Assembly (NCBI RefSeq): GCF_988243305.1
Contig: NZ_OZ547136.1
Length of the DNA stretch: 64,000 nucleotides
Reading direction: 5' to 3' (one strand)
The notes under the pieces were generated by a model. That model saw only the letters and a program-made list of their open reading frames with translations. It was not told where the DNA came from and searched no databases. The translations under genes were made by a program, and so were the position numbers. Numbering within the stretch: position 1 is the stretch's first letter; every line of letters starts with the position of its first letter. This document shows positions 14,272-55,194 of this stretch, piece by piece.

Positions 14272-14371
14272 ACAAAAAACAGACTGATCGAGGTCATTTT
14301 TGAGTGCAAAAAGTGCTGTAACTCTGAAAAAGCGATGGTAGAATCCATTTTTAAGCAAACGGTGATTTTGA

Positions 14372-15673
<1,302 letters not shown>

Positions 15674-16303: not shown

Positions 16304-16341
16304 CGAAAATCTTCATCAGAGATGACAACGGAGGAACCGAG

Positions 16342-18783: not shown

Positions 18784-18837
18784 TCAATACCCTCTTTAAA
18801 AGAAGAGGGTTAGATTGCTGACAAAATGCGCTTTGTT

Positions 18838-18940
18838 CATGCCGGATGCGGCGTGAACGCCTTATCCGGCCTACATAATCACGCAAATTCAATATATTGC
18901 AGAGATCATGTAGGCCGGATAAACGTAGTGCATCAGGCAA
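18838..18940. repeat. REP/BIME-type palindromic units (inverted pair)
   Basis: GCCGGATGCGGCGTGAACGCCTTATCCGGCCTACA and inverted TGTAGGCCGGATAAACG... between rnr and rlmB. Confidence 0.8.
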
Positions 18941-18962
18941 AACGTAAACAACGAGTACATTA

Positions 18963-19694
18963 ATGAGCGAAATGATTTACGGCATCCACGCAGTGCAGGC
19001 CCTGCTGGAGCGCGCCCCTGAACGTTTTCAGGAAGTCTTTATTTTAAAAGGTCGTGAAGATAAACGTCTGTTACCGCTGATTCACGCCCTTGAGTCTCAG
19101 GGCGTGGTTATCCAGTTGGCAAACCGCCAATATCTCGACGAGAAAAGCGACGGTGCCGTGCATCAGGGCATTATCGCCCGCGTGAAGCCAGGACGTCAGT
19201 ATCAGGAAAACGATCTGCCGGATCTGATCGCTTCGCTCGATCAACCGTTCCTGCTGATCCTCGACGGCGTAACCGATCCGCACAACCTCGGCGCGTGCCT
19301 GCGTAGCGCGGACGCTGCTGGCGTTCACGCGGTGATTGTGCCGAAAGATCGCTCCGCACAGCTCAACGCTACGGCGAAAAAAGTAGCCTGCGGCGCGGCA
19401 GAAAGCGTTCCGCTGATTCGGGTGACTAACCTTGCGCGCACCATGCGTATGTTGCAGGAAGAGAATATCTGGATCGTCGGTACGGCAGGCGAGGCGGATC
19501 ATACACTCTATCAGAGCAAAATGACCGGACGCCTGGCGCTGGTGATGGGTGCGGAAGGTGAAGGTATGCGTCGCCTGACTCGTGAACATTGCGATGAGTT
19601 GATCAGCATCCCGATGGCTGGAAGCGTTTCTTCCCTGAACGTTTCGGTTGCGACCGGAATTTGCTTATTTGAAGCGGTGCGCCAGCGCAGCTAA
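18963..19694 (+). CDS. rlmB: 23S rRNA (guanosine2251-2'-O)-methyltransferase RlmB
   Basis: 243 aa; SpoU/TrmH methyltransferase motifs. Confidence 0.95.
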
Positions 19695-19711
19695 TTTCTC
19701 AGAATTATGAA

Positions 19712-19742
19712 AAGCCATCCAGATTTGGATGGTTTTTTTTTG
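19712..19742 (+). terminator. Rho-independent terminator after rlmB
   Basis: Stem CCATCC/GGATGG with 5-6 nt loop followed by a run of 9 T. Confidence 0.75.
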
Positions 19743-19820
19743 TCTATAGCTGGTAAGATAATTACGTATTGCAAATATTCATTTTATTAATATTTAAACT
19801 TAATCTATATGGAATAATAT

Positions 19821-20222
19821 ATGACATGGAATCCGTTGGCGCTAGCGACGGCGCTGCAAACTGTACCTGAACAAAATATTGATGTAACAAATAGCGAGAA
19901 CGCATTAATTATTAAAATGAATGATTATGGCGATTTGCAAATCAATATTCTTTTTACTTCCCGCCAAATGATTATCGAAACCTTTATTTGTCCGGTGAGT
20001 AGTATCAGCAATCCAGATGAATTTAATACCTTCTTATTAAGAAATCAGAAGATGATGCCGTTGTCATCGGTAGGGATCTCCAGCGTACAACAGGAAGAGT
20101 ATTACATTGTTTTCGGGGCGTTATCGCTTAAATCTTCTCTTGAAGATATCCTGCTTGAGATAACCTCGCTGGTAGATAACGCATTGGATCTGGCTGAAAT
20201 TACAGAAGAATATTCACACTAA
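19821..20222 (+). CDS. yjfI: DUF2170 protein YjfI
   Basis: 133 aa; AT-rich upstream region; first gene of the yjfIJKLMC cluster. Confidence 0.85.
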   Translation: MTWNPLALATALQTVPEQNIDVTNSENALIIKMNDYGDLQINILFTSRQMIIETFICPVSSISNPDEFNTFLLRNQKMMPLSSVGISSVQQEEYYIVFGALSLKSSLEDILLEITSLVDNALDLAEITEEYSH

Positions 20223-20240
20223 TTACAAGGACGGGTATTT

Positions 20241-20939
20241 ATGGGAATTTTAAAAAGTTTATTTACGCTGGGGAAATCGTTTATCTCCCAGGCGGAAGAA
20301 TCCATTGAAGAAACCCAGGGCGTGCGCATGCTGGAACAGCATATTCGTGACGCTAAAGCTGAACTCGATAAAGCCGGAAAATCTCGCGTTGATCTGCTGG
20401 CGCGGGTGAAATTAAGTCACGATAAGCTGAAAGATTTACGTGAGCGCAAAGCCAGTCTGGAAGCCCGTGCGCTGGAAGCGTTAAGCAAGAACGTTAATCC
20501 GTCGTTGATTAACGAAGTTGCTGAAGAAATCGCGCGCCTTGAGAATCTCATTACCGCTGAAGAGCAAGTGTTGTCGAATCTGGAAGTCTCCCGTGATGGC
20601 GTGGAAAAAGCAGTTACAGCGACAGCGCAGCGTATCGCTCAGTTTGAGCAGCAAATGGAAGTCGTTAAAGCCACTGAAGCCATGCAGCGTGCACAACAGG
20701 CTGTAACAACCTCTACCGTTGGCGCATCTTCCAGCGTTTCGACAGCGGCAGAATCCTTAAAACGCCTGCAAACGCGTCAGGCCGAACGTCAGGCTCGCCT
20801 GGATGCTGCCGCACAGTTGGAGAAAGTCGCAGACGGTCGCGACCTTGACGAAAAGCTGGCGGAAGCCGGAATTGGCGGTAGCAATAAAAGTAGCGCCCAG
20901 GATGTATTAGCAAGACTGCAACGCCAACAGGGCGAGTAA
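20241..20939 (+). CDS. yjfJ: PspA/IM30-family protein YjfJ
   Basis: 232 aa, predicted long coiled coil, PspA/Vipp1-like. Confidence 0.88.
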   Translation: MGILKSLFTLGKSFISQAEESIEETQGVRMLEQHIRDAKAELDKAGKSRVDLLARVKLSHDKLKDLRERKASLEARALEALSKNVNPSLINEVAEEIARLENLITAEEQVLSNLEVSRDGVEKAVTATAQRIAQFEQQMEVVKATEAMQRAQQAVTTSTVGASSSVSTAAESLKRLQTRQAERQARLDAAAQLEKVADGRDLDEKLAEAGIGGSNKSSAQDVLARLQRQQGE

Positions 20940-20946
20940 TTTTTTT

Positions 20947-20979
20947 GCCAGCCTCGCTAAAAGGCTGGCAACTATTTTA
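20947..20979 (+). terminator. Hairpin plus T-tract after yjfJ (possible attenuator or terminator)
   Basis: Stem GCCAGCCT/AGGCTGGC followed by AACTATTTT. Confidence 0.45.
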
Positions 20980-20989
20980 AGGATAAAAT

Positions 20990-21649
20990 ATGTCTGGTTT
21001 TTTCCAGCGTCTGTTTGGCAAGGATAATAAGCCTGCTATCGCTCGCGGTCCGCTGGGACTTCATCTCAATAGTGGCTTTACGCTCGACACGTTAGCGTTT
21101 CGTTTGCTGGAAGATGAATTGCTGATTGCGCTGCCGGGTGAGGAATTTACGGTAGCCGCTGTCAGCCACATCGATCTGGGCGGCGGTAGTCAGATTTTCC
21201 GCTACTACACTTCAGGCGATGAATTTCTGCAAATCAATACCACCGGCGGCGAAGATATTGATGACATTGATGATATCAAGCTCTTTGTCTATGAAGAGAG
21301 CTACGGTATCAGTAAAGAGAGTCACTGGCGCGAGGCGATCAACGCCAAAGTGATGGGGGCAATGATCTTAAACTGGCAGGAAAAACGCTGGCAGCGATTT
21401 TTTAACAGCGAAGAACCGGGAAATATCGAACCCGTCTACATGCTGGAAAAAGTAGAAAATCAAAACCATGCCAAATGGGAGGTCCATAATTTTACCATGG
21501 GCTACCAACGCCAAGTAACCGAAGATACTTACGAATATTTGCTGTTAAATGGTGAGGAATCTTTTAACGATCTCGGCGAGCCAGAGTGGTTATTTTCGCG
21601 CGCGTTGGGTGTCGATATCCCGCTGACATCACTTCATATTATTGGTTAA
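20990..21649 (+). CDS. yjfK: DUF2491 protein YjfK
   Basis: 219 aa; conserved order after yjfJ. Confidence 0.85.
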   Translation: MSGFFQRLFGKDNKPAIARGPLGLHLNSGFTLDTLAFRLLEDELLIALPGEEFTVAAVSHIDLGGGSQIFRYYTSGDEFLQINTTGGEDIDDIDDIKLFVYEESYGISKESHWREAINAKVMGAMILNWQEKRWQRFFNSEEPGNIEPVYMLEKVENQNHAKWEVHNFTMGYQRQVTEDTYEYLLLNGEESFNDLGEPEWLFSRALGVDIPLTSLHIIG

Positions 21650-21666
21650 TTACAAGGACGTTTACA

Positions 21667-22065
21667 ATGCATATACTGGATTCACTTCTTGCCTTTAGCG
21701 CCTATTTTTTTATTGGCGTGGCTATGGTGATTATTTTTCTTTTTATCTATTCTAAAATTACACCGCACAACGAATGGCAGTTAATCAAAAACAATAATAC
21801 CGCGGCTTCACTGGCGTTCAGTGGTACATTGTTAGGTTACGTTATCCCATTATCCAGTGCGGCAATCAATGCGGTGAGTATTCCAGACTATTTCGCCTGG
21901 GGCGGGATTGCACTGGTGATTCAGTTACTCGTTTTTGCTGGTGTCAGACTTTATATGCCCGCATTAAGCGAAAAAATTATTAATCACAATACCGCAGCAG
22001 GAATGTTTATGGGAACCGCCGCGCTGGCTGGCGGTATTTTTAACGCAGCTTGTATGACATGGTAA
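21667..22065 (+). CDS. yjfL: DUF350 inner membrane protein YjfL
   Basis: 132-aa form from ATG 21667 (MHILDSLLAF...); multiple TM helices. Confidence 0.85.
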   Translation: MHILDSLLAFSAYFFIGVAMVIIFLFIYSKITPHNEWQLIKNNNTAASLAFSGTLLGYVIPLSSAAINAVSIPDYFAWGGIALVIQLLVFAGVRLYMPALSEKIINHNTAAGMFMGTAALAGGIFNAACMTW

Positions 22066-22074
22066 TGGACGATC

Positions 22075-22713
22075 ATGGCCAGAAAACGCAAATCAAGAAA
22101 TAACAGTAAAATTGGTCACGGAGCGATCAGTCGCATTGGAAGACCGCATAATCCTTTTGAGCCGCGCCGCAATCGCTACGCACAAAAATACTTAACGTTG
22201 GTGCTAATGGGCGGTGCCGTTTTTTTAATAGTCAAAGGATGGAGTGAAAGTAGCGATGTCGATAACGACGGCGACGGAACGTTTTACTCGACAGTGCAGG
22301 ATTGTATTGATGACGGTAATAATGCCGACATTTGCGCGCGTGGCTGGAATAACGCCAAAGCGGCGTTTTATGCCGATGTTCCGAAGAATATGACTCAGCA
22401 GAACTGTCAGTCTAAGTATGAAAATTGTTACTACGACAACGTTGAACAGAGTTGGATCCCGGTAATATCTGGATTTTTGTTAAGCCGGGTTATTCGTAAA
22501 GATCGCGATGAGCAGTTTGTTTATAACAGCGGCGGATCCTCATTTGCTTCCCGCCCCGTCTGGCGCAACACTTCCGGTGATTACTCCTGGCGCTCCGGTT
22601 CTGGCAAAAAAGAGTCTTACTCTTCAGGCGGCTTTACCACCAAAAAAGCGTCAACCGTTTCGCGCGGCGGCTATGGTCGTTCTTCCAGCGCCCGTGGGCA
22701 TTGGGGAGGCTAA
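22075..22713 (+). CDS. yjfM: DUF1190 protein YjfM
   Basis: 212 aa; basic N-terminus, TM segment, Ser/Gly-rich C-terminus. Confidence 0.85.
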   Translation: MARKRKSRNNSKIGHGAISRIGRPHNPFEPRRNRYAQKYLTLVLMGGAVFLIVKGWSESSDVDNDGDGTFYSTVQDCIDDGNNADICARGWNNAKAAFYADVPKNMTQQNCQSKYENCYYDNVEQSWIPVISGFLLSRVIRKDRDEQFVYNSGGSSFASRPVWRNTSGDYSWRSGSGKKESYSSGGFTTKKASTVSRGGYGRSSSARGHWGG

Positions 22714-22715
22714 TC

Positions 22716-23879
22716 ATGCTGAGACACAACGTTCCTGTGCGACGGGATCTGGACCAGATCGCCGCTAACAACGGTTTCGACTTTCATATCATCGACAATG
22801 AAATCTATTGGGATGAGAGTCGGGCTTACCGTTTTACTCTGCGCCAGATTGAAGAGCAGATCGAAAAACCGACTGCGGAACTGCATCAGATGTGCCTTGA
22901 GGTGGTGGATCGCGCGGTTAAAGACGAAGAGATCCTGACGCAACTGGCGATCCCGCCGTTGTACTGGGATGTGATCGCCGAAAGCTGGCGCGCACGCGAT
23001 CCTTCGCTGTATGGCCGGATGGATTTTGCCTGGTGTGGCAATGCGCCGGTGAAGCTGCTGGAGTACAACGCCGATACGCCGACCTCGTTGTATGAGTCGG
23101 CTTATTTCCAGTGGTTGTGGCTGGAGGATGCCCGGCGCAGCGGCATTATTCCGCGTGATGCCGATCAGTACAATGCCATTCAGGAACGCCTGATGTCGCG
23201 CTTTAGTGAGCTTTACAGTCGGGAACCGTTTTATTTTTGCTGCTGTCAGGACACCGATGAAGACAGGACTACCGTGCTGTACTTGCAGGACTGCGCCCAG
23301 CAGGCAGGGCAGGAGTCGCGGTTTATCTACATTGAAGATCTCGGTTTGGGCGTCGGCGGCGTACTGACCGATCTTGATGATAATGTCATCCAGCGTGCAT
23401 TTAAGCTGTATCCGCTGGAGTGGATGATGCGTGACGATAACGGTCCGCTGCTGCGCAAGCGTCGCGAGCAATGGGTGGAGCCGTTATGGAAAAGTATCTT
23501 GAGTAATAAAGGGCTAATGCCGCTGCTTTGGCGCTTCTTCCCTGGTCATCCTAACCTTCTTGCATCCTGGTTTGAAGGTGAAAAACCGCAGATTGCCGCT
23601 GGCGAAAGCTATGTGCGTAAACCGATCTACTCGCGCGAAGGCGGCAACGTCACCATTTTCGACGGTCAGAATAACGTCGTTGACCACGCTGATGGTGATT
23701 ACGCCGATGAACCGATGATCTACCAGGCGTTTCAACCTCTGCCGCGATTTGGCGATAGCTACACACTCATCGGTAGCTGGATTGTCGATGATGAAGCGTG
23801 CGGAATGGGGATCCGTGAAGATAACACGCTGATCACCAAAGACACCTCTCGTTTCGTTCCGCATTACATTGCTGGCTAA
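22716..23879 (+). CDS. yjfC: Glutathionylspermidine-synthase-like ATP-grasp protein YjfC
   Basis: 387-aa form from ATG 22716 (MLRHNVPVRRDLDQIA...); 2-nt gap after yjfM. Confidence 0.88.
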   Translation: MLRHNVPVRRDLDQIAANNGFDFHIIDNEIYWDESRAYRFTLRQIEEQIEKPTAELHQMCLEVVDRAVKDEEILTQLAIPPLYWDVIAESWRARDPSLYGRMDFAWCGNAPVKLLEYNADTPTSLYESAYFQWLWLEDARRSGIIPRDADQYNAIQERLMSRFSELYSREPFYFCCCQDTDEDRTTVLYLQDCAQQAGQESRFIYIEDLGLGVGGVLTDLDDNVIQRAFKLYPLEWMMRDDNGPLLRKRREQWVEPLWKSILSNKGLMPLLWRFFPGHPNLLASWFEGEKPQIAAGESYVRKPIYSREGGNVTIFDGQNNVVDHADGDYADEPMIYQAFQPLPRFGDSYTLIGSWIVDDEACGMGIREDNTLITKDTSRFVPHYIAG

Positions 23880-23962
23880 GAATGTTTTAGCAATCTCTTT
23901 CTGTCAGGAATCCATGGCAGTGACCATACTAAAGGTGACTGCCATTGATGGAGGGAGACACA

Positions 23963-25588
23963 GTGCACTGGCAAACTCACACCGTTTTTAATCAACCTAT
24001 ACCATTAAATAACAGCAACTTATACCTGTCTGATGGCGCGCTCTGCGAAGCGGTAACGCGTGAAGGTGCTGGCTGGGATAGCGATTTTCTAGCCAGTATT
24101 GGTCAGCAGTTAGGAACGGCTGAATCCCTTGAACTGGGGCGGCTGGCGAATGTGAATCCGCCTGAATTATTGCGCTACGATGCGCAAGGACGCCGTCTGG
24201 ACGATGTGCGTTTTCACCCCGCCTGGCACCTGCTGATGCAGGCGCTATGTACCAATCGGGTGCACAATCTTGCCTGGGAAGAAGACGCTCGCTCCGGCGC
24301 ATTTGTGGCGCGCGCGGCGCGTTTTATGTTACATGCGCAGGTTGAGGCGGGGTCGTTATGTCCGATAACCATGACCTTTGCCGCCACGCCATTGTTGTTA
24401 CAGATGTTACCCACGCCGTTTCAGGACTGGACCACGCCGCTGCTGAGCGATCGCTACGATTCTCACTTATTGCCAGGTGGGCAAAAACGCGGTTTGTTGA
24501 TTGGCATGGGAATGACGGAAAAGCAGGGCGGTTCCGATGTCATGAGCAACACCACCCGCGCAGAGCGCCTGGAAGATGGCTCTTATCGGCTGGTGGGGCA
24601 TAAATGGTTTTTCTCGGTGCCGCAAAGCGATGCGCATCTGGTGCTGGCGCAGACTACGGGCGGTTTGTCCTGCTTTTTTGTGCCGCGCTTTTTGCCTGAC
24701 GGGCAACGCAACGCGATTCGCCTCGAGCGGCTGAAAGATAAGCTGGGTAATCGCTCTAACGCCAGCTGCGAAGTGGAGTTTCAGGATGCCATTGGCTGGT
24801 TGTTGGGGCAGGAAGGGGAAGGAATTCGTCTGATCCTGAAAATGGGTGGGATGACGCGTTTTGATTGCGCCCTGGGTAGCCATGCCATGATGCGCCGTGC
24901 GTTCTCGCTGGCGATTTATCATGCACATCAACGCCATGTTTTTGGTAATCCATTGATCCAACAGCCCCTTATGCGTCATGTCTTAAGTCGCATGGCACTT
25001 CAGCTTGAAGGGCAAACGGCGTTGCTGTTTCGTCTTGCGCGAGCGTGGGACCGGCGTGCCGATGCCAAAGAAGCTCTGTGGGCGCGTTTATTTACACCTG
25101 CGGCAAAATTTGTGATCTGCAAAAGAGGTATGCCGTTTGTGGCCGAAGCGATGGAGGTGCTGGGCGGCATTGGTTATTGCGAGGAGAGCGAGCTGCCGCG
25201 GCTTTACCGGGAGATGCCGGTAAACAGTATTTGGGAAGGTTCCGGCAATATTATGTGCCTGGATGTGCTGCGCGTTCTCAATAAACAAGCGGGCGTATAC
25301 GACTTATTGTCGGAAGCATTTGTGGAAGTGAAAGGGCAGGATCGCTATTTTGATCGCGCGGTTCGTCGTTTACAGCAGCAGCTGCGTAAGCCAGCTGAAG
25401 AACTGGGGCGAGAGATTACTCATCAGCTATTCCTGCTGGGCTGCGGTGCGCAAATGTTGAAATATGCCTCTCCGCCAATGGCGCAGGCGTGGTGTCAGGT
25501 GATGTTAGATACGCGCGGCGGCGTACGGTTGTCAGAGCAGATCCAGAATGATTTATTGCTGCGGGCGACGGGGGGAGTGTGTGTGTAA
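23963..25588 (+). CDS. aidB: Adaptive-response acyl-CoA dehydrogenase-like protein AidB
   Basis: 541-aa form with GTG start 23963 (VHWQTHTVFNQ...); acyl-CoA dehydrogenase fold. Confidence 0.9.
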   Translation: MHWQTHTVFNQPIPLNNSNLYLSDGALCEAVTREGAGWDSDFLASIGQQLGTAESLELGRLANVNPPELLRYDAQGRRLDDVRFHPAWHLLMQALCTNRVHNLAWEEDARSGAFVARAARFMLHAQVEAGSLCPITMTFAATPLLLQMLPTPFQDWTTPLLSDRYDSHLLPGGQKRGLLIGMGMTEKQGGSDVMSNTTRAERLEDGSYRLVGHKWFFSVPQSDAHLVLAQTTGGLSCFFVPRFLPDGQRNAIRLERLKDKLGNRSNASCEVEFQDAIGWLLGQEGEGIRLILKMGGMTRFDCALGSHAMMRRAFSLAIYHAHQRHVFGNPLIQQPLMRHVLSRMALQLEGQTALLFRLARAWDRRADAKEALWARLFTPAAKFVICKRGMPFVAEAMEVLGGIGYCEESELPRLYREMPVNSIWEGSGNIMCLDVLRVLNKQAGVYDLLSEAFVEVKGQDRYFDRAVRRLQQQLRKPAEELGREITHQLFLLGCGAQMLKYASPPMAQAWCQVMLDTRGGVRLSEQIQNDLLLRATGGVCV

Positions 25589-39473: not shown

Positions 39474-40544
39474 TTATTTAATCCGGGCCATCGCGCTTCT
39501 CAGTGCCAAATCTGCCTCTTCCGTTATCTCCAGACTTTTCTGCAACACCGTTTCTGACCGGGACAGTGCCTGACGTGCTGCCAGCGGTTTCCGGATATGC
39601 TCCATCGTCAGCATCGTGTCCTCGTAGCCCTGCTGACGCCAGGCGTCGGTATGTGCCGACGTGAAACTGAGCAGACCGCCACTGTTGCCACCATCACCTG
39701 CATATTTCAGCCTTTTCCGGGGACGGATCTCAAGGATTGTGGTGTCCGGAAAAGCCTGGCGATCCCATAAAGAACCGTCACTCAGATGCGACACAATCAC
39801 CATATTGCATCCGGCATCGACCAGAGGCGTTACAGGGGTATTTCCCTGCATATTTCGCCATCCTCCCATACCACCATCACCGAACATTGTCCCCTGAACC
39901 TCACGGGGACGGAACAACAGGGGCAGTGCGGCTGACGCAAGCAGAGCCTCTTTCTGCTGTCCGCGGGGCAGACTCTGGATATGCTGAAAAACGGCGTTTT
40001 TCGTGGTTCCGGAACCCAGTTCAGCACGAATGCAGTCAATAATATCCTGCATGCCCCCTTCTGTGGGGTACAGCGACACATACAGCGGTAGCCCGTCTGC
40101 CAGAGCATCTGTATCAAGATAATGATCCATCAGCGCTGTCAGGGGCCCATCTGACAACAACGGCTGAGTCATCGGATTGTCGAAGCCGTTGATTATCGAT
40201 ATATGGCGAAGAAGTGTCGTAAGCAGTGCTCCTGCACGTCCGGGGATCTGGCAGAGGTTCATTGCCTGGAACAATTTTTTCAGCAATGAAAAGTAAACCG
40301 ATCGGTTTACCGACAGCACCTGATTATTCCCAAGATGATCCCAGAGCGCCTCCAGGCGTACGGCAGCTTCTGACAGATCGGGAGAGGCCGCGATAATGGC
40401 ACCATTGAATGCGCCAATGCTGGCCCCTGAAACCATGCTGATCTGTGTACCACACTCTGCCAGTGCCTTAACCACTCCCGCCTGATAAGCGCCCACCGCC
40501 CCACCGCCGGACAGCACCAGCCCTGTTTTTATTTCTATACTCAT
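39474..40544 (-). CDS. Patatin-like phospholipase
   Basis: 356 aa; oxyanion motif SGGGAVGAYQAG, nucleophile GASIG (GxSxG), catalytic Asp in FGDGG; ATG overlaps stop of upstream gene (ATGA). Confidence 0.85.
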   Translation of the reverse strand: MSIEIKTGLVLSGGGAVGAYQAGVVKALAECGTQISMVSGASIGAFNGAIIAASPDLSEAAVRLEALWDHLGNNQVLSVNRSVYFSLLKKLFQAMNLCQIPGRAGALLTTLLRHISIINGFDNPMTQPLLSDGPLTALMDHYLDTDALADGLPLYVSLYPTEGGMQDIIDCIRAELGSGTTKNAVFQHIQSLPRGQQKEALLASAALPLLFRPREVQGTMFGDGGMGGWRNMQGNTPVTPLVDAGCNMVIVSHLSDGSLWDRQAFPDTTILEIRPRKRLKYAGDGGNSGGLLSFTSAHTDAWRQQGYEDTMLTMEHIRKPLAARQALSRSETVLQKSLEITEEADLALRSAMARIK

Positions 40545-41446
40545 GCAGCCCCCTTCTGAAATATTTCATCGACCATACTTTCAGAGAGGCGTTCTGCAGA
40601 GCAGAGACGGGGCATGCGAACCGGTAAGTGTTCTGCAGCCTGCGTGGTTGACCAGATCACCGGATGCTGCTCTTCACTGCACCAGTCCCCCAGCCAGTTA
40701 ATCGCGTCATGCCACTCGTTATCTGCCTGCTCCCGGCCCTGACCACCAAGCCAGTCCAGAGTGTTCAGACGCACGGTTGCACTACCGCCACTCTCCTGTG
40801 CCATCTGCGTTAATGCTTTATGTCTGAGAATATCCAGTAGCTGGTTAACCTGGCCTGTTTCGCCCTGACGTATCACATCACCAAACGCGCCCCAGCGAAG
40901 CTCTTCAAGTGCCACATAACAACGTCCGGCAGGGGAAAATGACGCATATCGCCCGGCGCTCCACCAGGAGAATATCTGCTCAAGATGTAACTGCGCCCGC
41001 TGAACCAGGTCAACACGGTGGAGTTTTTCTTCAAGATGATTCAGTTTCTGGTGAACCTGATCGGCCAGGGTGAGTAACTGCTCCCGCGTATCTGCGGAAT
41101 AATGCGCCAGCCTGGCAGTATCACTGACCAGTGAACTGACCCTGTCGTTTACCCGGGTAATCGCGTAGTTTGTGGTGGCAAGTGACGTTGTCAGCTCCGT
41201 CAGCCAGCGCAGGGACGCCTCAACGCCCTGTGCAAGCGAAGCATTGATGGCATTCTGCCGTGCAGCACCTTCGCCGCTCAGCCCCTCTTTTAACCGCCGG
41301 AAGAACGTGCGCTCTCCGGCCGTACGGATATGCTCCTGTGCAACATCAATACCGTTTGCGAAATCAACCACAAATTTTTCAGGAAGACAGGTGAGTACCT
41401 GACATACCCGGTTATCAGCAATTTGTTGAATAAATGGTGAAGTCAC
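40541..41446 (-). CDS. YjcZ-like protein (partner of dynamin-like GTPase)
   Basis: 301-aa ORF; GTG start overlaps dynamin stop; family call from memory of chromosomal crfC-yjcZ pair. Confidence 0.65.
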   Translation of the reverse strand: MTSPFIQQIADNRVCQVLTCLPEKFVVDFANGIDVAQEHIRTAGERTFFRRLKEGLSGEGAARQNAINASLAQGVEASLRWLTELTTSLATTNYAITRVNDRVSSLVSDTARLAHYSADTREQLLTLADQVHQKLNHLEEKLHRVDLVQRAQLHLEQIFSWWSAGRYASFSPAGRCYVALEELRWGAFGDVIRQGETGQVNQLLDILRHKALTQMAQESGGSATVRLNTLDWLGGQGREQADNEWHDAINWLGDWCSEEQHPVIWSTTQAAEHLPVRMPRLCSAERLSESMVDEIFQKGAA

Positions 41447-43827
41447 AGCATTGTCTCCAGTTCTTCCCTTAACGCCTTACTGTCAGTAATGAGCTCAGGA
41501 ACCCTTTCATTTAACGCCTGAAGACGCCCGGTCAGCCGTTCCTGCGCCTGCTGATCGCGTTTATGATCTTCAGAGCTCTGAATCAGCGTGTTACGCAGCT
41601 GTTCAACTTTCTCCCTGAATGTACAGAAAAAGGCATCGATTTCCTGGCGGACGGGCTGGTTAATATCCTGCTCAATGGATGCCTGCAGCTCCCCGAAATA
41701 TGCCCGGGTCAGTGACATCACTTCCTCTCTGACCTTGTTGATATTGATCACGCTGCGGCTCACATCCACACTGTACTCTTTCCAGCCCCAGTCACTGGTG
41801 TTTGCCCATCGACAAAGCGTACCCCAGACACCATCCTGTCGACAGCGACGGGTTACTGTCTCCGTTCTTTCCTCCATAAGCGCGCTCAGATTTGTTTTTA
41901 CTGCGAGCCGGGTCTGTAACTGGCTGACTGCCGGAAAACTGATTTTTACAGTGAAACCTTCATCCTCCAGACGGGCATTGATGCGTCCGGCAATATTTTC
42001 TGTGGCGTACAGGGCCGTACCACGAAAACCTGTTTCAATACCCCTGACGATTTTTTCCAGTTCAGGACGGAACTGTGCTTCAGCCTCACGGTGCAGGCTG
42101 GTCACGGTCGATTCGATTTGCGTCATCAGTTCAAGGGCTTCCCTGCGATCACTGAATTTTATTTCGGGGCTGTCCGGATCAAAGTCCCGCATCCTGTCAT
42201 GCTGATTTCCGGTTCCGAAAATATCGTGAAAGAAAGCGAATGCGTTTCTCTCCCGGGGCTGCGCTGAATTTTCTTCCTCCAGCATTTGCTGTTCTTTGCG
42301 TTTACCGCTTCTGAAATAGTCATTCAGCTCCTCTTCCAGTGAGGTGCAGACCCCCGTCAGTAATTCCCGGGTTCTGGCATCGATCTCCTCCATGGCCATT
42401 CTGACATCAGCGGTCACCTGCTCCTGACAGTCCGCGATTTCCCGGATATCCGCAAGCAGGCTGGTGATATGCGACTGCAGTGACTGAATGCTTTGCTGTA
42501 GCCCCTGATGGCGTAATGACAGATATTCGCTGACATTTTCCGCATTCTGCATCAGTTTTGCGGCGGCAGAATCAACCGCCAGTGCCGCCGCTCTGGAATG
42601 GGAGCTCTGTATGACTTCCGTTATCAGTTGATCGATAAGTGAGCCTTCCCACAGGTCTGTCGCCCCTTCGGTTGCCATTTCACTGTCTTTACAGACGTAT
42701 TCTTTTTTCATGCGACCGAAGGCTTCCCTGACAAAATCATCGACCCAGGCTTCATCAACAGGAAGGGTTCTGTTTTTCCGTAACTCATGAAGCGCACGGT
42801 TAGCCAGGTACGCCTGACGTGATGAGCCTGGATAAACGCGGGAGGCGGGCAGCACATCGCTGTTCAGCATTGCCGGAACTTTCTGGCGTACGGCATCTGC
42901 CCCATCGCCATTGCGGTCTTTCTCATCAAATTTATTGACCAGCACAAACAGGCGGCCAGCTGATACGTCAGCAATGGCATTAAGCTCTTTACGGACGTCT
43001 TCATCCGCTTTTGAGTTCATCTGGGTGTAATCCATCACCGCCAGCACCGCAGAGGCTTTCTGCAGTTGATCCCGCATCATCACTTCCATCTGCGGTTGTC
43101 CGGCCTCATTAGGGCCGGGGGTATCCAGCAGTGTGAGTGTTCCCTGGCATGGATCCATCCCCACCAGATGGCTGAATTCCACGTCGATCACCGGCAGTTT
43201 CTGCACTTCTGCGTATTCATCAAAAGGAAACTCACTCCCCATTGCCGCAGCAAGGCGAACCAGATCGTTTAACGATGCCAGTCCGGTAAAAATTTCCTCC
43301 TCCCCGTGGTATTCATTTTTGAGCCAGCCATCATTTGCCAGAATATCCAGCAGTTCGCAGGTATCCCCGGTTTGCTGCAGGGTCTGTGCGACTTGCTGTC
43401 CTGCCGGGGTGTCGAGTTTTTGTTTCAGTGTGCTTAATAAATTGCGGACGGGCTGAATATGTTCCAGATGGAGGACCGGCTCAGTTTTTCCGGGAACGTG
43501 GCGGATGAGCGTCGGTACAGAGGTCATGGGGCGGTTACGGTTAGGCAGAATTTCCTGCCCCACAATGGCGTTGATGGTGGTTGATTTACCTGCTTTCATC
43601 GTGCCGACAACAGCCAGCACCATCTCCCTGCGGGCGGTTTTGATTTGTTCGCCCTCCAGCTCCTCAATTCTTTTCAGTGCTTTCTGTTTATCAAAAAGCA
43701 GTCTGTTTTCGTTCTTACTGTCAGATAACACATCCGGCTCATCAACCATTTGCCGGAGCAGATTAATGTTCAGTTGCAAAAGTCGGTCGGCTTCATCACA
43801 AAGCAGGGCGATGTTCTTTTCGTGCAT
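41443..43827 (-). CDS. Bacterial dynamin-like GTPase (CrfC/YjdA- and LeoA-like)
   Basis: 794 aa; G1 GTMKAGKST, G3 DTPGPNE, G4 NKFD; long helical C-terminal region; RBS AGGAAGG upstream of ATG 43827. Confidence 0.85.
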   Translation of the reverse strand: MHEKNIALLCDEADRLLQLNINLLRQMVDEPDVLSDSKNENRLLFDKQKALKRIEELEGEQIKTARREMVLAVVGTMKAGKSTTINAIVGQEILPNRNRPMTSVPTLIRHVPGKTEPVLHLEHIQPVRNLLSTLKQKLDTPAGQQVAQTLQQTGDTCELLDILANDGWLKNEYHGEEEIFTGLASLNDLVRLAAAMGSEFPFDEYAEVQKLPVIDVEFSHLVGMDPCQGTLTLLDTPGPNEAGQPQMEVMMRDQLQKASAVLAVMDYTQMNSKADEDVRKELNAIADVSAGRLFVLVNKFDEKDRNGDGADAVRQKVPAMLNSDVLPASRVYPGSSRQAYLANRALHELRKNRTLPVDEAWVDDFVREAFGRMKKEYVCKDSEMATEGATDLWEGSLIDQLITEVIQSSHSRAAALAVDSAAAKLMQNAENVSEYLSLRHQGLQQSIQSLQSHITSLLADIREIADCQEQVTADVRMAMEEIDARTRELLTGVCTSLEEELNDYFRSGKRKEQQMLEEENSAQPRERNAFAFFHDIFGTGNQHDRMRDFDPDSPEIKFSDRREALELMTQIESTVTSLHREAEAQFRPELEKIVRGIETGFRGTALYATENIAGRINARLEDEGFTVKISFPAVSQLQTRLAVKTNLSALMEERTETVTRRCRQDGVWGTLCRWANTSDWGWKEYSVDVSRSVININKVREEVMSLTRAYFGELQASIEQDINQPVRQEIDAFFCTFREKVEQLRNTLIQSSEDHKRDQQAQERLTGRLQALNERVPELITDSKALREELETML

Positions 43828-49124: not shown

Positions 49125-49756
49125 GCGTTCGGTAATCACAACGGCATCGCGCCAGGTGTTATCCGCTTTGTGATTCTTATTGGCTCTTCTCAGGTTATTA
49201 AAAGCTGAATATGTTCCTGTTGTCGGGAACCAGGATAATGTCGGGAACGTTAAGCTGTATAACGACAACAAAGAATTCGAAATCAAAAGGGAATGGTGTA
49301 CGGAGGTGTGGACGGTAATGGGCCGATTTTCGGGCATTACCGACCTCTGCTGAGGTTTTCTCGTATTTCTGGGGATCCGGTGAGTTACTGTCACTGTCTG
49401 GCACAGCAAGCGCAGAGGCGGCGGGGCGCTTTGCTCCGCTGATTCCGGATAATTCCTCCCCTGTAACCTACCGCAACAGTACAAATACACTGACGCCTGA
49501 AACGACAGCCAGAATCAGCACAAGCCACAATCCCTGCACACCGTTTTGCGTATCACCATAACGCCTCCTCACAGCCTTACCCGTAACCGGTTTTTTACAT
49601 TAAAAAAACAACGCTGGGAATTCAATCGTCAGTCCGGAGACGACAGTCGGGTTATCACAGAGTGCCTGAGACAGTGTCCTGCCGGAGGTCACCTCAGGGA
49701 CTCTGCACATTTTTTACAGCGTGGCTATTCCGTATGAACCATACGGAGATTTAACC

Positions 49757-50326
49757 ATGACCTACAAATACAACCCCTTCTGGCAGCAACGTATTCGTGA
49801 GACGGTGCGGCACGCACTGAATGTTCATCCCCGCCTGACGGCATTGCGGGTTGACCTGCGTCTCCCGGATGTACCGGCAGCAACGGACGCAGCTGTGATA
49901 TCCCGCTTCATCAATGCCCTGAAAGCCCGAATCGACGCTTACCAGAAACGTAAGCATCGGGAAGGTAAACGCGTGCATCCCACAACCCTGCATTACGTCT
50001 GGGCCCGGGAGTTTGGGGAGTGCAAAGGTAAAAAACACTATCACCTGCTGCTGCTGGTCAACCGGGATACCTGGTGTCGTGCCGGTGATTACCGCGCTCC
50101 GGGGTCACTGGCCGGGATGATTAAACAGGCCTGGTGCAGTGCCCTGGGAGTGGATGCCGGACGTTATGACACGCTGGCACATTTTCCGGTCAGGCCGGCG
50201 GTGTGGCTGGAACGCGATGATGACACCGGCTTTCAGCAGGTGCTGGAGCGTGCTGACTATCTGGCGAAGGAGAGTACCAAAGCTTACGGCACCGGTGAGC
50301 GCAACTTTGGCTGCAGTCGTGGCTGA
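49757..50326 (+). CDS. YagK/YfjJ-family (inovirus Gp2-like) protein
   Basis: ATG 49757 after RBS GGAGAT (MTYKYNPFWQQRIRETVRHALN...); family typical of CP4-like islands. Confidence 0.7.
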   Translation: MTYKYNPFWQQRIRETVRHALNVHPRLTALRVDLRLPDVPAATDAAVISRFINALKARIDAYQKRKHREGKRVHPTTLHYVWAREFGECKGKKHYHLLLLVNRDTWCRAGDYRAPGSLAGMIKQAWCSALGVDAGRYDTLAHFPVRPAVWLERDDDTGFQQVLERADYLAKESTKAYGTGERNFGCSRG

Positions 50327-50491
50327 GCCCGACAGACGACTTATCTGACTTCAGTGTGATGACGTGTTCACAGCGACCACACTGATTTTCCCTTCTGAGA
50401 CTGAACTGAAAACCGCCATTCACACCTGACCACGCTGCCCGTACCGGGACGGCTGTTGCCTGCGTGTCGTCTGGCGGTAAGGAACCACACT

Positions 50492-50911
50492 ATGTACGCA
50501 AAATCTTTTCTCGCACTTGATGGCAACGGACGTCTGACCGGTGCCCGTACCGCACAGACCGCACCTTATGCTTACTACACCTGCCACCTTTGCGGCAGTG
50601 CACTCAGATACCACCCGCAGCACGACACGGAACGTCCCTGGTTTGAACACACTGACGACGGGCTGACGGAGCACGCGCAGCAATGTCCTTATGTCAGGCC
50701 GGAACGCAGAGAAATACGGTTGATTAAACGTCTGCAGCAATTCGTCCCGGATGCCTTACCCGTGGTACGTAAAGCCAGCTGGTACTGCAGGCAATGTCAC
50801 CACGATTATTATGGGGAGCAGTACTGCACACACTGCCAGACCGGGCGCTTCAGTGAGGACGGGGAGCAGAATGAACGGTATAAAAACGGGGCTGGGGATC
50901 ACGCCGGGTGA
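50492..50911 (+). CDS. Cys/His-rich zinc-ribbon protein, first half of a tandem pair (second half 50871..51179 in another frame)
   Basis: ATG 50492 after RBS AAGGAA; CHLCGSALRYH...WFEHTD repeated as CLSCHGRLIL...WFEHDL in the downstream frame; C-terminus runs into the IS66 end. Confidence 0.55.
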   Translation: MYAKSFLALDGNGRLTGARTAQTAPYAYYTCHLCGSALRYHPQHDTERPWFEHTDDGLTEHAQQCPYVRPERREIRLIKRLQQFVPDALPVVRKASWYCRQCHHDYYGEQYCTHCQTGRFSEDGEQNERYKNGAGDHAG

Positions 50912-51094
50912 GCACATTATCAGTGCCGACTCTGCGCTCAGCAGAAATATCCGGCATTGTTTCTGCCTTTCCTGTCATGGCCGGTTGATTCTGCAGACAG
51001 ATGCTCAGGGGGCGTGGTTTGAGCACGATTTACATGCCCTGAGTGAGCAACAGAAGGGTAAGCGTGCAGCAAGAACCGTATTGACGGGGATGTG

Positions 51095-52633
51095 TTATTC
51101 AGTCGGCAGTGCTACGCGCCAGGGGAGCAGTTCGCCGACCCGGTTTATCGGCCAGTCGGCTATGACGTCAAGGACATAGCGGAGGTAGCTTTCTGGCTCC
51201 ACTCCGTTCAGTTTGCACGTCCCGATCAGGCTGTACAGCAGCGCTCCCCGCTCTCCTCCATGATCCGAACCGAAGAACAGGTAGTTTTTGCGGCCCAGAC
51301 TGACCATCCGCAACGCATTTTCAGCGATGTTATTGTCCGCCTCAGCCCAGCCATCATCTGCATAGTACGTCAGCGCCGGCCACTGGTTCAGGGCGTATGC
51401 GAACGCTTTCGCCAGTTCTGAGTGTCGCGACAGGGTTTTCATCTTTTCACGCAGCCAGCTTTCCAGGGATTTCAGCAGCGGTTTCGTTTTCAACTGACGT
51501 TCGGCAAGGCGCTGTTCCGCCGTCATTCCCCTTATCTCTGCCTCGATGGCGTACAGTTCGCCGATCCGTTTCAGCGCTTCCTCCGTCAGGGCTGACGGGG
51601 TGCGAACGTGCACATCGTGGATTTTACGGCGGGCGTGAGCCCAACAGGCGGCTTCCGTTATCCGGCCATCCCGGTACAGCTCGTTGAACCCGGCGTATGC
51701 ATCCGCCTGCAGTACACCACTGAACCCCGCAAGATGGGTCTGCGGATGGATGCCTTTTCTGTCCGGGCTGTAAGCGAACCACACCGCCGGCGCCAGCGTT
51801 GACCCGGCGTTACGGTCGTCACGAACATACGCCCACAACCGCTCGGTCTTCGTTTTCTTATTGCCTGGCAACAGCACCGGGACAGGCGTGTCATCAACAT
51901 GGAGCTTACCGTCAGTCAGCACATAGCCATGAAGCGCCTCTTCCAGCGGAGACAGCTGCCGGCAGCATGCATCCACCCAGCCCGACAGCAGTGAACGGCT
52001 CAGCTCCACACCTTGCCGGCCGTATATTTCTGACTGGCGATACAGCGGGGTGTGCTCTGCATACTTCGAGGTCAGCACGCGGGCCAGCAGCCCCGGTCCG
52101 GCGATACCCCGCTCGATGGGCCGCGAAGGTGCAGGTGCCTGCACGATGGCATCGCACTGAGTACAGGCATGTTTTTCCCGTACCGTCCGGATAACCCGGA
52201 AGGCGCTACGCATCAACTCCAGCTGTTCGGCGATATCCTCGCCCAGATAGCTCAGTGAACCGCCGCAGTTCGGGCAGCACGGCGCCGCAGGCAACAGTCG
52301 CTTTTCGTCACGGGGTAGTGATTCAGGGAACGGCTTACGGGTGCGGGTCTGACGCAACGGACGCTGTACTGCCGGGTCATACACCCTACCAGTCAGCGTA
52401 TCGCTCTCTTTCTGAAGCCGGTTCAGATCGGCTTCCATTTGTGCGATACGGCGGGAGACTTTTTCGGAACGACTGCCGAAGTTCATCCGGCGGAGTTTAT
52501 CCAGCTGCGCCTGCAGATGGTCTATTTCGCGCTCCCGGTTGCTCAGCTTTTCCTGCAGGGCGTGGATCAGCGCTTCCTGTTCGGCCAGGCGCTGTTTCAG
52601 CAGGAAAATGTCGTCAGAAGAGATGTCGTTCAT
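51095..52633 (-). CDS. IS66-family transposase TnpC (full length)
   Basis: About 512 aa from [14 protein letters not shown]... (ORF extends to 52669); CxxC zinc motifs and DDE region. Confidence 0.85.
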
Positions 52634-53730
52634 ACATCGTGTATTTTTCGCCGGGCATGGACCCAGCACGCAACTTCTGTCTGTGCACCACCTTCACGTT
52701 TGGCACTGAACAGCCGATCGTAACCGCTGAATGCATCCGCCTGCAGGATACCCCGGAAGGGACGAAGGTGTTGTACCGGATGTTTTCCCTGCCTGTCTGG
52801 TGAGTAGGCGAACCAGACCGCCGGTGGCTCTGATGAGCCCGCATTCCGGTCATCCCGGACATACGTCCAGATGCGTCCTGTTTTTGCCTTTTTTCTGCCC
52901 GGTGTCAGCACTTTTACCGGTGTGTCGTCAGTGTGAACCTTGCGGGTGTTCATCACGTAACGGTACAGGGCATCATTCAGCGGAGTCATTAACTGGCAGC
53001 ACGCGTCAACCCAGTTGGAGATTAATGCACGGCTCAGTTCGGCACCCTGTCGGGCAAAGATTTCACTCTGACGATACAGTGGCAGGTGTTCGCAGTATTT
53101 TCCCGTTAACACGCGGGCAAGTAATCCGGAGCCCGCGATGCCGCGCGCTATCGGGCGGGACGGCGCTGGCGCTTCAACTATACAGTCACATTTTGTACAG
53201 GCTTTTTTTACCCGAACAGTGCGGATCACTTTCAGGGCGCTACTCACCAGTTCCAGCTGCTCAGCACTGACTTCACCCAGATAATCCAGCTCACTGCCAC
53301 ACTCCGGGCAACAACTTTCTTCAGGCTCCAGGCGGTGTATTTCACGGGGAAGATGTGCTGGTAACGGACGACGATGACGTGACTGTCGCAACTGGCGGGG
53401 AACCTGCGGGTCATCCTCACGCCCACTGTAACGATCGCTTTCCTGTTCGCGTTGTTTCAGTTGGGCCTCAGCCTGTTCAACCTCACGCTGCAGTTTTTCA
53501 GAACGGGTACCGAACAGCATCCGGCGCAGTTTTTCTATCTGGGCCCTCAGATATTCTATTTCCCGCTCCTCCTCTTCGATCTTTTCTTCGGCACGTGCCA
53601 GTGCAGAGCGCAGGAAGGCCTCCGTCTCTTCAACCAGACTCAGTTGCAGATCTCTCTGACGGAGGGCTTCAGCCTGCTCAGAGAGCAGCCTTTCCAGCTC
53701 AGTGATACGAATGAGGTATTTCCGACTCAT
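52630..53730 (-). CDS. IS66-family transposase TnpC, C-terminally truncated copy
   Basis: 366 aa [19 protein letters not shown]... ending at the conserved ARRKIHDV motif. Confidence 0.8.
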
Positions 53731-53760
53731 GACCGTTTTTATAATCCGGCCATGACATTT

Positions 53761-54111
53761 TTACAACATTGTCAGTGCGTTAAGACGGGATGTTTTTGGC
53801 TGACGCCAGTCCAGCTTATCGAGGAGCATTGCCAGCTGCGAGCGGGTAATGGATACCTTACCGTCACGCACCGCAGGCCAGATAAACAGGCCTTCCTCCA
53901 GGCGTTTGGTGAACAGGCACAGACCATCAGCATCAGCCCAGAGGATTTTAATCATGTCACTCCGTCGGCCACGGAAGATGAACAGGTGACCGGAGAAGGG
54001 GTTCTCATCCAGCACATGTTGTACCTGTTCCCCCAGACCGTTGAAGGATTTACGCATATCAGTAACGCCGGCAACCAGCGAGATTCGAGTGTCTGATGGG
54101 AGCGAGATCAT
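53761..54111 (-). CDS. IS66 accessory protein TnpB (Orf2)
   Basis: 116 aa MISLPSDTRISLVAGVTDMRKSFNGL... Confidence 0.85.
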   Translation of the reverse strand: MISLPSDTRISLVAGVTDMRKSFNGLGEQVQHVLDENPFSGHLFIFRGRRSDMIKILWADADGLCLFTKRLEEGLFIWPAVRDGKVSITRSQLAMLLDKLDWRQPKTSRLNALTML

Positions 54112-54533
54112 CGCCCCCTCCCGGTCAGTTCACGGATCAACACCGTGAGCAGCTCTGGTGAAGGATTTTCCAGCGTCATGTTACCGTGGCGGAACTCAAC
54201 TTTACAGGAACTGGCACTGACTGTGCTTTGTGAAGGAGTGGATAAAAGCGGAGTAAGAGCCGCCATAGGCTCTTTCTGCTCATCAGGCGTTATCTCAACA
54301 GGTAATAATTCAACGCCAGCGTCAGAAGAGGTTGTTACCGGAAGACGCCGCGATATACGCCCTTCGTTCTGCCAGAGCCTGAGCCATTTGAACAGGAGGT
54401 TATCATTGATATCGTGTTCCCTGGCAATACGGGCAACAGAGGCTCCTGGTTGCAAAGCCAGTTTAACCATTTGAAGTTTAAACTCATTTGAAAATGTTCT
54501 GCGGGGTTCTGCGGATAATATTTTCTGTTCCAT
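54108..54533 (-). CDS. IS66 accessory protein TnpA (Orf1)
   Basis: 141 aa; HTH region; 4-nt overlap with tnpB. Confidence 0.85.
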   Translation of the reverse strand: MEQKILSAEPRRTFSNEFKLQMVKLALQPGASVARIAREHDINDNLLFKWLRLWQNEGRISRRLPVTTSSDAGVELLPVEITPDEQKEPMAALTPLLSTPSQSTVSASSCKVEFRHGNMTLENPSPELLTVLIRELTGRGR

Positions 54534-55194
54534 AACAGGTGTCCACTAGTTGATGAAAAGGTGGGCACCTACGTTACCAATACTGGCTTAATGGCTACAT
54601 ACGGCGGTCAGTTTACGCTTACCATGTATCTGGCGAGTGAAGCTTTATGTCGTGTTCTGGCGTGTCCTGTGTTAGTTAGAACACGCCATCGATGGTCAGC
54701 AGGTTCATATTGCACCAGAGCGGATACAGCGTGGTGTTATGTCAGGGCTGCGCTGTTTACGTGAACACGTGGCGTATGGCCCCGCTTCCTGGCCGCTGCT
54801 GGGCATGGATCACGGCGCGACAAAGGGGCGACTACCTGGCAGCATGTGTCCAGCCGGTTCACAATCTGGTGAAGGTTCCTTACGCTCATGGGCCATACTG
54901 ATAATTCACCAGGCCATCATTTCCAGAGGAAGACGCCGTTTGCGTAGCGTGACAGTGTCGGACTCTTCAGGGCTGTGGGTAATCAGTTCCGGGGCAAGAT
55001 AGTCGCAGAGGGTTACGCAGAGAATAGTAACTGGACACTGGATCGATCAACCGATCCTTAACTGAGCGGCATGACAGCTTTCTGATGGTTTTTTTTTGAT
55101 AATCTTCACATTGTGCTTCTTTTCTGTTGGATAATCTTTGTACTTGATGGTGTACTAGGTATCCCATTATGCAGTTAAGTGAAGGTGATTAAAA

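Follow-up and report, generated by a model that had tools for sequence, protein, structure and literature searches.

The locus belongs to a CP4-57-like genomic island of E. coli and forms a three-gene module, in which a YagK/YfjJ-like gene is followed by two tandem zinc-protein paralogues. Combining the evidence described below, we conclude that the module very probably consists of a YagK-type gene, an intact first paralogue (gene 1) and an IS66-truncated second paralogue (gene 2), with a putative role in DNA processing. The products of the tandem paralogues are small stand-alone proteins with two predicted zinc-binding sites each. The main value of the analysis is a correct annotation of the locus: one intact zinc-protein gene and an IS66-truncated paralogue pseudogene, and no frameshifted single gene. 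The following features were located in the 64,000-nt stretch of DNA that was analysed (the window).

49757-50326, plus strand: YagK/YfjJ-like gene ('inovirus Gp2 family protein'; PF11726; RefSeq CDS in CFT073 and BR1220)
50492-50911, plus strand: gene 1, intact, 139-aa 'putative zinc ribbon protein' (DUF7828, Zn_ribbon_11; identical to WP_001423036.1)
50864-50865, plus strand: position of a 1-bp deletion, compared with the majority allele (alignments A1 and A3)
50871-50911, plus strand: 41-nt stretch shared by gene 1 and gene 2, read in different frames (ORF list, RefSeq, alignment A1)
50871-51057, plus strand: gene 2 pseudogene fragment, first 62 codons (intact paralogue 136-141 aa; RefSeq pseudo-CDS; comparison with strain 114)
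51058-51179, plus strand: chimeric tail of the gene-2 frame, 40 codons and a stop (IS66-family terminal inverted repeat and 3' end of tnpC)
51058-54622, minus strand: composite of two IS66-family elements (tnpC, truncated tnpC, tnpB, tnpA)

The initial annotation recognized two paralogous zinc-binding units at this locus, and profile searches bear this out, with both units scoring above the DUF7828 cut-off. The ORF of gene 1 (50456/50492-50911, plus strand) encodes 139 aa from the ATG at 50492 and contains CHLCGSALRYH...WFEHTD; that of gene 2 (50751-51179, plus strand) lies in a different frame and contains CLSCHGRLIL...WFEHDL. The gene 1 product matches Pfam DUF7828 (PF25165; gathering cut-off 25.7 bits) with 105.3 bits (E 1.4e-30) over profile positions 1-87, and its residues 94-123 match Zn_ribbon_11 (PF11682) with 32.6 bits, above the threshold of 24 bits. 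The predicted zinc ligands are C31, C34, H53 and C65 in the N-terminal DUF7828 domain, and C99, C102, C112 and C115 form the CxxC-x9-CxxC motif of the C-terminal ribbon. The zinc-ligand positions are invariant in alignment A2. An AF2 model of the gene 1 product has a mean pLDDT of 83.8, with values below 50 for the tail residues 130-139. The gene 2 fragment matches DUF7828 with 57.3 bits (E 1.3e-15), at profile positions 2-62 of 87 only. A profile search found no Zn_ribbon_11 match in the fragment because the ribbon part is lost; the match is present in intact gene 2 copies elsewhere. The gene 1 product shares 32% identity over 87 aa with the intact gene 2 product of strain 114 (BLASTP, E 6e-13). 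Between the two products encoded in the window itself the alignment is weak (E 7e-4), gene 2 being a stump of 62 aa. The BLASTP match and the C/H/C positions, which are invariant in both proteins (alignment A2), indicate that gene 1 and gene 2 are paralogues.

Whether the paralogues derive from one gene or two was decided by intact homologues. It had been proposed that the locus is a single gene with an internal repeat, now frameshifted. An ancestral gene of this kind, split near 50871-50911, would account for paralogous, adjacent units in different frames; a real 1-bp indel exists at 50864/50865, and rare fused proteins occur (P0012, P0024, P0036, P0044 and P0180). However, the intact homologues are two separate genes, the finding that the initial annotation had named as its refutation, and are annotated as such by RefSeq in CFT073, BR1220, ZH193, strain 114, 3CM and UTI89. 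At intact loci the two products have 127 and 141 aa and the genes share 4 nt (ATGA); across the loci examined, gene 1 encodes about 127-139 aa and gene 2 about 135-141 aa. Each intact gene of the pair encodes both a DUF7828 domain and a C-terminal CxxC-x9-CxxC ribbon. The genes are separate throughout Escherichia, Serratia and Citrobacter: a Serratia pair is separated by a 27-nt spacer, and in Citrobacter a single DUF7828 gene follows each YagK-like gene. Almost all members of the family (315 sequence matches and 274 profile matches) are 125-145 aa long, and the fusions fall into four small clusters (1, 4, 11 and 1 member sequences) whose junctions all differ. Putting the deleted T back into the window's sequence gives ...GTA GCA GAA TGA, the normal gene 1 stop overlapping the gene-2 ATG. 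This is the majority arrangement, and the ORFs stay unfused, with no continuous frame. In addition, the majority allele carries a TGA in the gene-2 frame 18 nt upstream of the gene-2 ATG (read from alignment A1). A split ancestral gene is therefore very unlikely, and the supposed frameshift zone at 50871-50911 is a plain overlap of two genes. In intact loci, the ATGA overlap would couple translation of gene 1 and gene 2. A promoter scan of 49400-51200 gave no promoter-like site, and a terminator scan of the same interval gave one terminator-like hairpin, inside gene 2, at chance frequency.

Overlapping ORFs in different frames could also point to programmed ribosomal frameshifting, which would produce a two-unit fusion protein beside a short product, and the overlap contains an A-rich run (TATAAAAAC, about 50880-50888). 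We consider this extremely improbable. The overlap is not conserved, being 41 nt here and 4 nt in most alleles, replaced by the 27-nt spacer in Serratia and missing from the Citrobacter single genes. In the majority allele the gene-2 frame is open for only 18 nt before the ATG, without an X XXY YYZ heptamer (alignment A1), and neither a conserved slippery site nor a downstream structure was seen across alleles. Gene 2 also has its own start: the true start is the ATG at 50871, as annotated by RefSeq, with GGGGAG ahead of it, and 50751-50870 is an upstream non-coding extension of the ORF.

Two separate genes being the preferred reading, the 1-bp indel has another meaning. Gene 1 is intact and represents a minority allele. 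Relative to the majority allele, one base pair is missing at 50864/50865 (GGGGTAGCAGAATGA to GGGG-AGCAGAATGA; alignments A1 and A3), three codons ahead of the gene 1 stop. The deletion changes the C-terminal VAE to EQNERYKNGAGDHAG, so that 3 residues are replaced by 15, and shifts the stop from the ATGA overlap to 50909-50911, which makes the overlap 41 nt long instead of 4. The exact 61-mer of the deletion allele occurs in 128 of the 1271 complete genomes having the segment, and the other matches listed span 62 nt. The same allele is found beside an intact gene 2 in L015, which means that the deletion has not disrupted a fusion. The search for a frameshift by alignment to intact homologues, which the initial annotation had suggested, thus uncovered a real indel, but one without the consequence ascribed to it.

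The deletion could instead mark gene 1 as a second decaying pseudogene, which would leave the whole module dead in this strain. The 15 new residues are predicted to be disordered (residues 130-139 having the pLDDT values below 50), gene 2 as the partner has already been lost, and the usual ATGA coupling is gone. Against this, the altered residues come only after both Pfam domains and the last of the eight conserved zinc ligands, and the C-terminal tails of family members are free to differ in both length and sequence (alignment A2). A cluster of 244 sequences, 88% identical, has the same gene 1 tail, the 139-aa allele exists next to the intact gene 2 of L015, and RefSeq annotates the protein as intact. 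Decay of gene 1 is therefore unlikely. Single-base indels in G-runs are frequent errors, and the site, GGGG(T)AG, is a G-run, which raises the question of whether the indel and the apparent truncation of gene 2 are sequencing or assembly artefacts. There is virtually no chance of this. The identical 61-mer recurs in 128 complete genomes and the identical gene2::IS66 junction in 705 of 5426 complete E. coli genomes. The exact 139-aa gene 1 product and the exact 102-aa chimeric gene2::IS66 ORF are each found on at least 1000 independent contigs from many projects, which indirectly answers the initial annotation's call for a check of read support, and the deletion travels with a nearby G-to-C substitution that is common to L015.

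Gene 2 is a pseudogene whose last 239 nt have been replaced by an IS66-family end at 51058. As the initial annotation had stated, the truncation coincides with an IS66 terminus: homology to intact copies ends at 51057, and the IS end starts at 51058 with GTAAGCGTGCAG..., a 100% match to an ISEc22-type end. Compared with the strain 114 gene, the window retains nt 1-187 of 426 and 239 of 426 nt are missing; a search with the strain 114 gene as the query did not find the missing 3' part beyond the IS or anywhere in the window. The fragment keeps the CxxC and WFEH motifs, but C65, the fourth ligand, and all of the C-terminal ribbon are missing. RefSeq annotates it as a pseudo-CDS, 'missing C-terminus'. 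Presence or absence of the indel and presence or absence of the IS66 junction occur in all four combinations among island copies, a distribution compatible with recombination among them.

The sequence next to gene 2 is a composite. An intact tnpC (51095-52669, minus strand), carried by an ISEc22-like end, matches DDE_Tnp_IS66 (PF03050; E 2.9e-106) and NF033517 (465.9 bits; cut-off 180). It is joined to a second IS66-family element with a 3'-truncated tnpC (52630-53730), tnpB (53761-54111) and tnpA (54108-54533); tnpB and tnpA are annotated in identical RefSeq loci. The outer ends of the composite are GTAAGCG... and ...CGCTTAC. No 8-bp target-site duplication surrounds the composite, its flanks being ACAGAAGG and CATGTATC. 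The lack of a target-site duplication, the composite of two elements and the absent 3' part of gene 2 argue against a simple insertion, and the loss of this part therefore involved an IS-associated deletion or recombination.

The YagK/YfjJ-like neighbour, also named in the initial annotation, is confirmed at 49757-50326 by a match of its product to PF11726 (162.5 bits, E 1.2e-47; cut-off 25.8 bits). The product scores 25.0 bits (E 2.3e-5) against REP_ORF2-G2P, under the Pfam cut-off of 27.8, and HYHLLLL (HUH-like) and YLAK motifs are present in its translation. Directly upstream of the zinc-protein gene or genes there is a YagK-like gene in every locus with annotation examined. The YagK/YfjJ-like gene would be the Rep-like upstream partner in the module.

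The zinc proteins may be zinc-dependent nucleic-acid-binding or adaptor subunits, and the Rep-like, HUH-motif YagK/YfjJ protein would be their partner in processing island DNA, with replication or maintenance after island excision as candidate roles. We put these steps forward with low confidence. In the window, the gene-1 paralogue alone could still act. The more general proposal is that a Rep-like YagK/YfjJ protein with HUH motif and its conserved partners, one or two stand-alone CoiA-type-finger/zinc-ribbon proteins, constitute an uncharacterised module for DNA processing in CP4-57-like islands of Enterobacterales, which we regard as doubtful at present. If it were true, possible functions of the module would include replication or maintenance once the island has been excised, and also defence. 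DNA recognition would then fall to the zinc proteins, with the tandem paralogues acting as a heteromer, and the frequent disruption of the second paralogue by IS66 would point to a lineage whose module is degenerating. Searches for experimental literature on the function of DUF7828, PF11682, DUF3279 or YagK/YfjJ found nothing, and neither zinc-ribbon protein matched the PADLOC (defence) or PHROGs (phage) libraries. The DUF7828 family is narrowly distributed. Only 3 of its loci occur in IMG/VR, so the family is not phage-borne. Fusion to an enzymatic domain was considered as a functional clue; there was none among 274 profile matches (1.84 billion representatives), all of which are at most 238 aa long.

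The locus can be compared with several known systems. The closest are the pairs that RefSeq annotates as 'putative zinc ribbon protein' and 'DUF7828 domain-containing protein' in Enterobacterales islands, which are the same locus as that in the window without substantive difference. The top database matches to the locus are 99.9-100% over 731 nt. In CFT073 (WP_001423036.1 and pseudogene C_RS29745), the gene order, with an inovirus-Gp2/YagK-like gene in front, is as in the window, and so are the IS66 junction and the annotation of a pseudogene. The two-gene annotation with the second gene as a pseudogene is thus already public in RefSeq, in hundreds of genomes. Strain 114 has an intact pair (WP_000271020.1 and WP_032181455.1). 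The window differs from the majority allele by the 1-bp deletion (139 versus 127 aa) together with the truncated second gene. The composite shares with IS66-family elements the tnpA-tnpB-tnpC organisation, a DDE_Tnp_IS66 transposase and terminal repeats beginning with GTAAGCG. Unlike a single element of the family, it combines the truncated tnpC of one element with the end and complete tnpC of a second, and lacks the 8-bp duplication.

At the protein level, the two-hairpin C-terminal CxxC-x9-CxxC ribbon weakly resembles ribosomal protein eL43/L37Ae (E 0.14-0.98) as well as TFIIB and further ribbon families (E 0.002-0.1), a motif-level likeness that is not significant and does not imply membership. 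CoiA, a nuclease involved in DNA processing, has a putative zinc finger at its N-terminus (bioRxiv 10.1101/2024.02.06.579203), and the DUF7828 N-domain aligns with this finger over 49 columns with an hhalign probability of 87% (E 3.8e-6), in a comparison with database CoiA sequences only (alignment A4). Like CoiA_N (PF25164), the first ~50 residues have a short strand-rich leader, a CxxC and an aromatic-FxH motif. A direct CoiA_N match was found in only 1 of 32 members (E 0.11), and many CoiA proteins also score on the DUF7828 model (precomputed PF25165 matches). None of the 32 members contains the PD-(D/E)XK nuclease domain (CoiA_nuc, PF06054), their sequences ending after the zinc ribbon, and the DUF7828 proteins are therefore not CoiA. 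They differ from CoiA also in that the ligands are apparently CCHC (C31, C34, H53 and C65) and not C2H2, in the extra C-terminal zinc ribbon, and in their setting, which is Enterobacterales islands in contrast to the competence regulons of Firmicutes. The similarity between the DUF7828 domain and the CoiA finger is a first hint that these proteins may have a DNA-related role.

The zinc-ribbon locus belongs to a CP4-57-like island, where it lies 3' of a YagK/YfjJ-like gene. Its two members are an intact gene for a small zinc-binding protein and a tandem paralogue reduced to a pseudogene by IS66 truncation. RefSeq already annotates this ordinary locus correctly. The features of the locus are:

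49757-50326: YagK/YfjJ-like gene, 5' of gene 1
50492-50911, + strand: gene 1 ORF, 139 aa from its ATG
50751-51179: second ORF as called mechanically, in a frame other than that of gene 1
51058-54622: IS66-family composite joining an ISEc22-type end, which carries a complete tnpC, to a second element of the family
51095-52669, - strand: IS66-family transposase gene, complete tnpC (PF03050, E 2.9e-106; NF033517, 465.9 bits)

The initial annotation described two ORFs with the same Cys/His pattern beside a YagK/YfjJ-like gene. Both ORFs are present, and the neighbor matches PF11726 (E 1.2e-47). The pattern is not a chance one: both ORFs match Pfam DUF7828 over the gathering score, gene 1 with 105.3 bits (E 1.4e-30) and the second ORF with 57.3 bits (E 1.3e-15). 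Gene 1 also has a C-terminal Zn_ribbon_11 match (32.6 bits) and a good AAGGA ribosome-binding site 5' of its ATG. The gene 1 product is 32% identical to the product of intact gene 2 across 87 aa (E 6e-13); judged by sequence, the two genes are paralogous. Residues C31, C34, F51, H53, C65, W97, C99, C102, G108 and C112 are invariant in the family alignment and common to both paralogues, and C115 is kept in at least 90% of the sequences. Each protein would amount to a CCHC-type site and a CxxC-x9-CxxC ribbon.

The two ORFs had been interpreted as one gene with an internal repeat, frameshifted near 50871-50911. Homologues refute this interpretation, since the intact loci carry two genuinely separate, overlapping genes. 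A 731-nt region of the window is 99.9-100% identical to loci of E. coli CFT073, ATCC 25922, BR1220 and others. RefSeq annotates there an intact 139-aa ‘putative zinc ribbon protein’ (WP_001423036.1), equivalent to 50492-50911, and a pseudogene, ‘putative zinc ribbon protein, missing C-terminus’, equivalent to 50871-51056. IS-free loci carry two complete genes, of 127 and 141 aa with a 4-nt overlap in strains 114 and 3CM, and of 133 and 136 aa in UTI89. The majority junction in the nucleotide alignment reads ...GGG GTA GCA GAA TGA, with the gene 2 ATG embedded (ATGA). A 27-nt spacer lies between the two Serratia genes, and in Citrobacter one DUF7828 gene follows each YagK-like gene. Fused gene 1-gene 2 proteins were found (clusters P0012, P0024, P0036, P0044 and P0180). 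They have 1 to 11 member sequences apiece and differing junctions, and are therefore secondary deletions or fusions.

Compared with the majority allele, the window lacks 1 bp between 50864 and 50865 (GGGGTAG to GGGGAG), a deletion linked with a G-to-C change at 50860. The deletion falls in gene 1 codon 125, 3' of all zinc ligands. It changes the C-terminal VAE to EQNERYKNGAGDHAG and shifts the stop codon to 50909-50911, producing the 41-nt overlap (50871-50911) that had been taken for a frameshift zone. It also joins the open upstream frame to the gene 2 frame, so that the mechanical ORF starts at 50751 and not at the real ATG at 50871. When the base is re-inserted, the ATGA stop/start overlap is restored and the genes are not fused, again arguing against a single gene. 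Joining of the two ORFs by programmed frameshifting is unlikely: the overlap varies between homologues, and in the majority allele the 18 nt that stay open 5' of the gene 2 ATG contain no slippery site.

The new gene 1 tail is predicted to be disordered (pLDDT <50, residues 130-139). It is unlikely that gene 1 is also dead: it retains every ligand and both domains, the C-terminal tail varies freely in the family, and the deletion allele is also seen with an intact partner, a 136-aa gene 2 in locus L015. The exact 61-mer with the deletion occurs in 128 of the 1271 complete E. coli genomes having the segment; the other rows listed are 62 nt. Strain ZH193 has the IS66 junction and lacks the deletion. 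All four combinations of indel and IS66 truncation thus exist among E. coli (strain 114, ZH193, L015 and the window), suggesting that the 2-6 island copies in each genome have exchanged sequence by recombination or gene conversion. Recurrent mutation would be the other source of these combinations.

The truncation by IS66 proposed initially is borne out by the alignments. Gene 2 homology to intact copies stops at 51057 (nt 187 of 426), and the IS terminal repeat GTAAGCGTGCAG... begins at 51058. The last 239 nt of gene 2 are absent throughout the window. The fragment encodes residues 1-62, keeping the CxxC and WFEH but losing C65 and the entire C-terminal ribbon; its frame runs 40 codons into the IS end (stop at 51177-51179). 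In the composite, the complete tnpC abuts the 3'-truncated tnpC (52630-53730) of the second element, which retains a tnpB and a tnpA. The tnpC copies form direct repeats, 73-78% identical and spaced 1034 nt apart. The outer 8-bp flanks of the composite show no target duplication (ACAGAAGG versus CATGTATC). The unlike flanks and the composite show that the 3' part of gene 2 was lost by IS-associated deletion or recombination, not simple insertion. A sequencing artefact is refuted by hundreds of independent assemblies: the identical gene 2/IS66 junction is found in 705 of 5426 complete genomes, and the exact 139-aa product and exact 102-aa chimeric ORF each occur on at least 1000 contigs, which rules out an assembly artefact.

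Several other features of the window were observed. The island-chromosome junction lies directly after ulaD (ORF 31718-32524, OMPdecase family), and the gene beyond it is the island's DUF4942 gene (32796-33644, - strand), indicating that the ula operon is interrupted. This junction has no tRNA gene and is common to 63 complete E. coli genomes. Within the island, adjoining a YeeP-like GTPase gene, a three-gene cluster (39474-43827, - strand) encodes a dynamin-family GTPase (794 aa), a YjcZ/RdcB-like protein (301 aa) and a patatin-like phospholipase (356 aa), tightly packed with overlapping stops and starts. The core-chromosome part of the window has three tandem tRNA-Gly(GCC) genes (1926-2345), and over 14000-24000 (purA-rnr-rlmB-yjfC region) it shares 99.4% identity with ordinary E. 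coli chromosomes.

The family is small. A sequence search found 315 relatives, nearly all of 125-140 aa, in Escherichia, Salmonella, Citrobacter, Klebsiella, Enterobacter, Serratia and Edwardsiella. Searching 1.84 billion representatives with a profile gave just 274 matches at E ≤1e-3, none longer than 238 aa or fused to another domain. The family is nearly missing from IMG/VR (3 loci), PHROGs and PADLOC gave zero matches, and we found no literature on it.

In every annotated locus examined, the zinc-ribbon gene or genes lie directly 3' of a YagK/YfjJ-like gene. The product of this neighbor in the window has an HUH-like motif HYHLLLL (KKHYHLLLLVN) and a YxxK-like motif YLAK (DYLAKES), as rolling-circle Rep endonucleases typically do. 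Its match to Pfam REP_ORF2-G2P (inovirus/microvirus Rep) is sub-threshold (25.0 bits, cut-off 27.8). In Citrobacter loci L009-L012 (~300-8390), the module of a YagK-like gene and a single DUF7828 gene occurs at least twice, adjoining what looks like a Dpd-type cluster for DNA modification or defence, whose genes encode DpdD, a PLD-family protein and a large DEAD helicase. From gene neighborhood and domain similarity, we tentatively propose that the zinc proteins might act with the Rep-like YagK/YfjJ protein in island DNA processing, possibly as nucleic-acid-binding or adaptor subunits.

The N-domain, DUF7828, is similar to the zinc finger at the N-terminus of the competence protein CoiA. Profile-profile comparison of the family alignment with real streptococcal CoiA gave a probability of 87% (E 3.8e-6, 49 columns), and many real CoiA proteins have precomputed DUF7828 matches. 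CoiA is a PD-(D/E)XK nuclease required for transformation D-loop resolution, with a putative N-terminal C2H2 finger (bioRxiv 10.1101/2024.02.06.579203). In contrast, the zinc-ribbon proteins have no nuclease domain and their ligands appear to be CCHC. They are therefore not members of the CoiA family; the small domain alone appears to be related.
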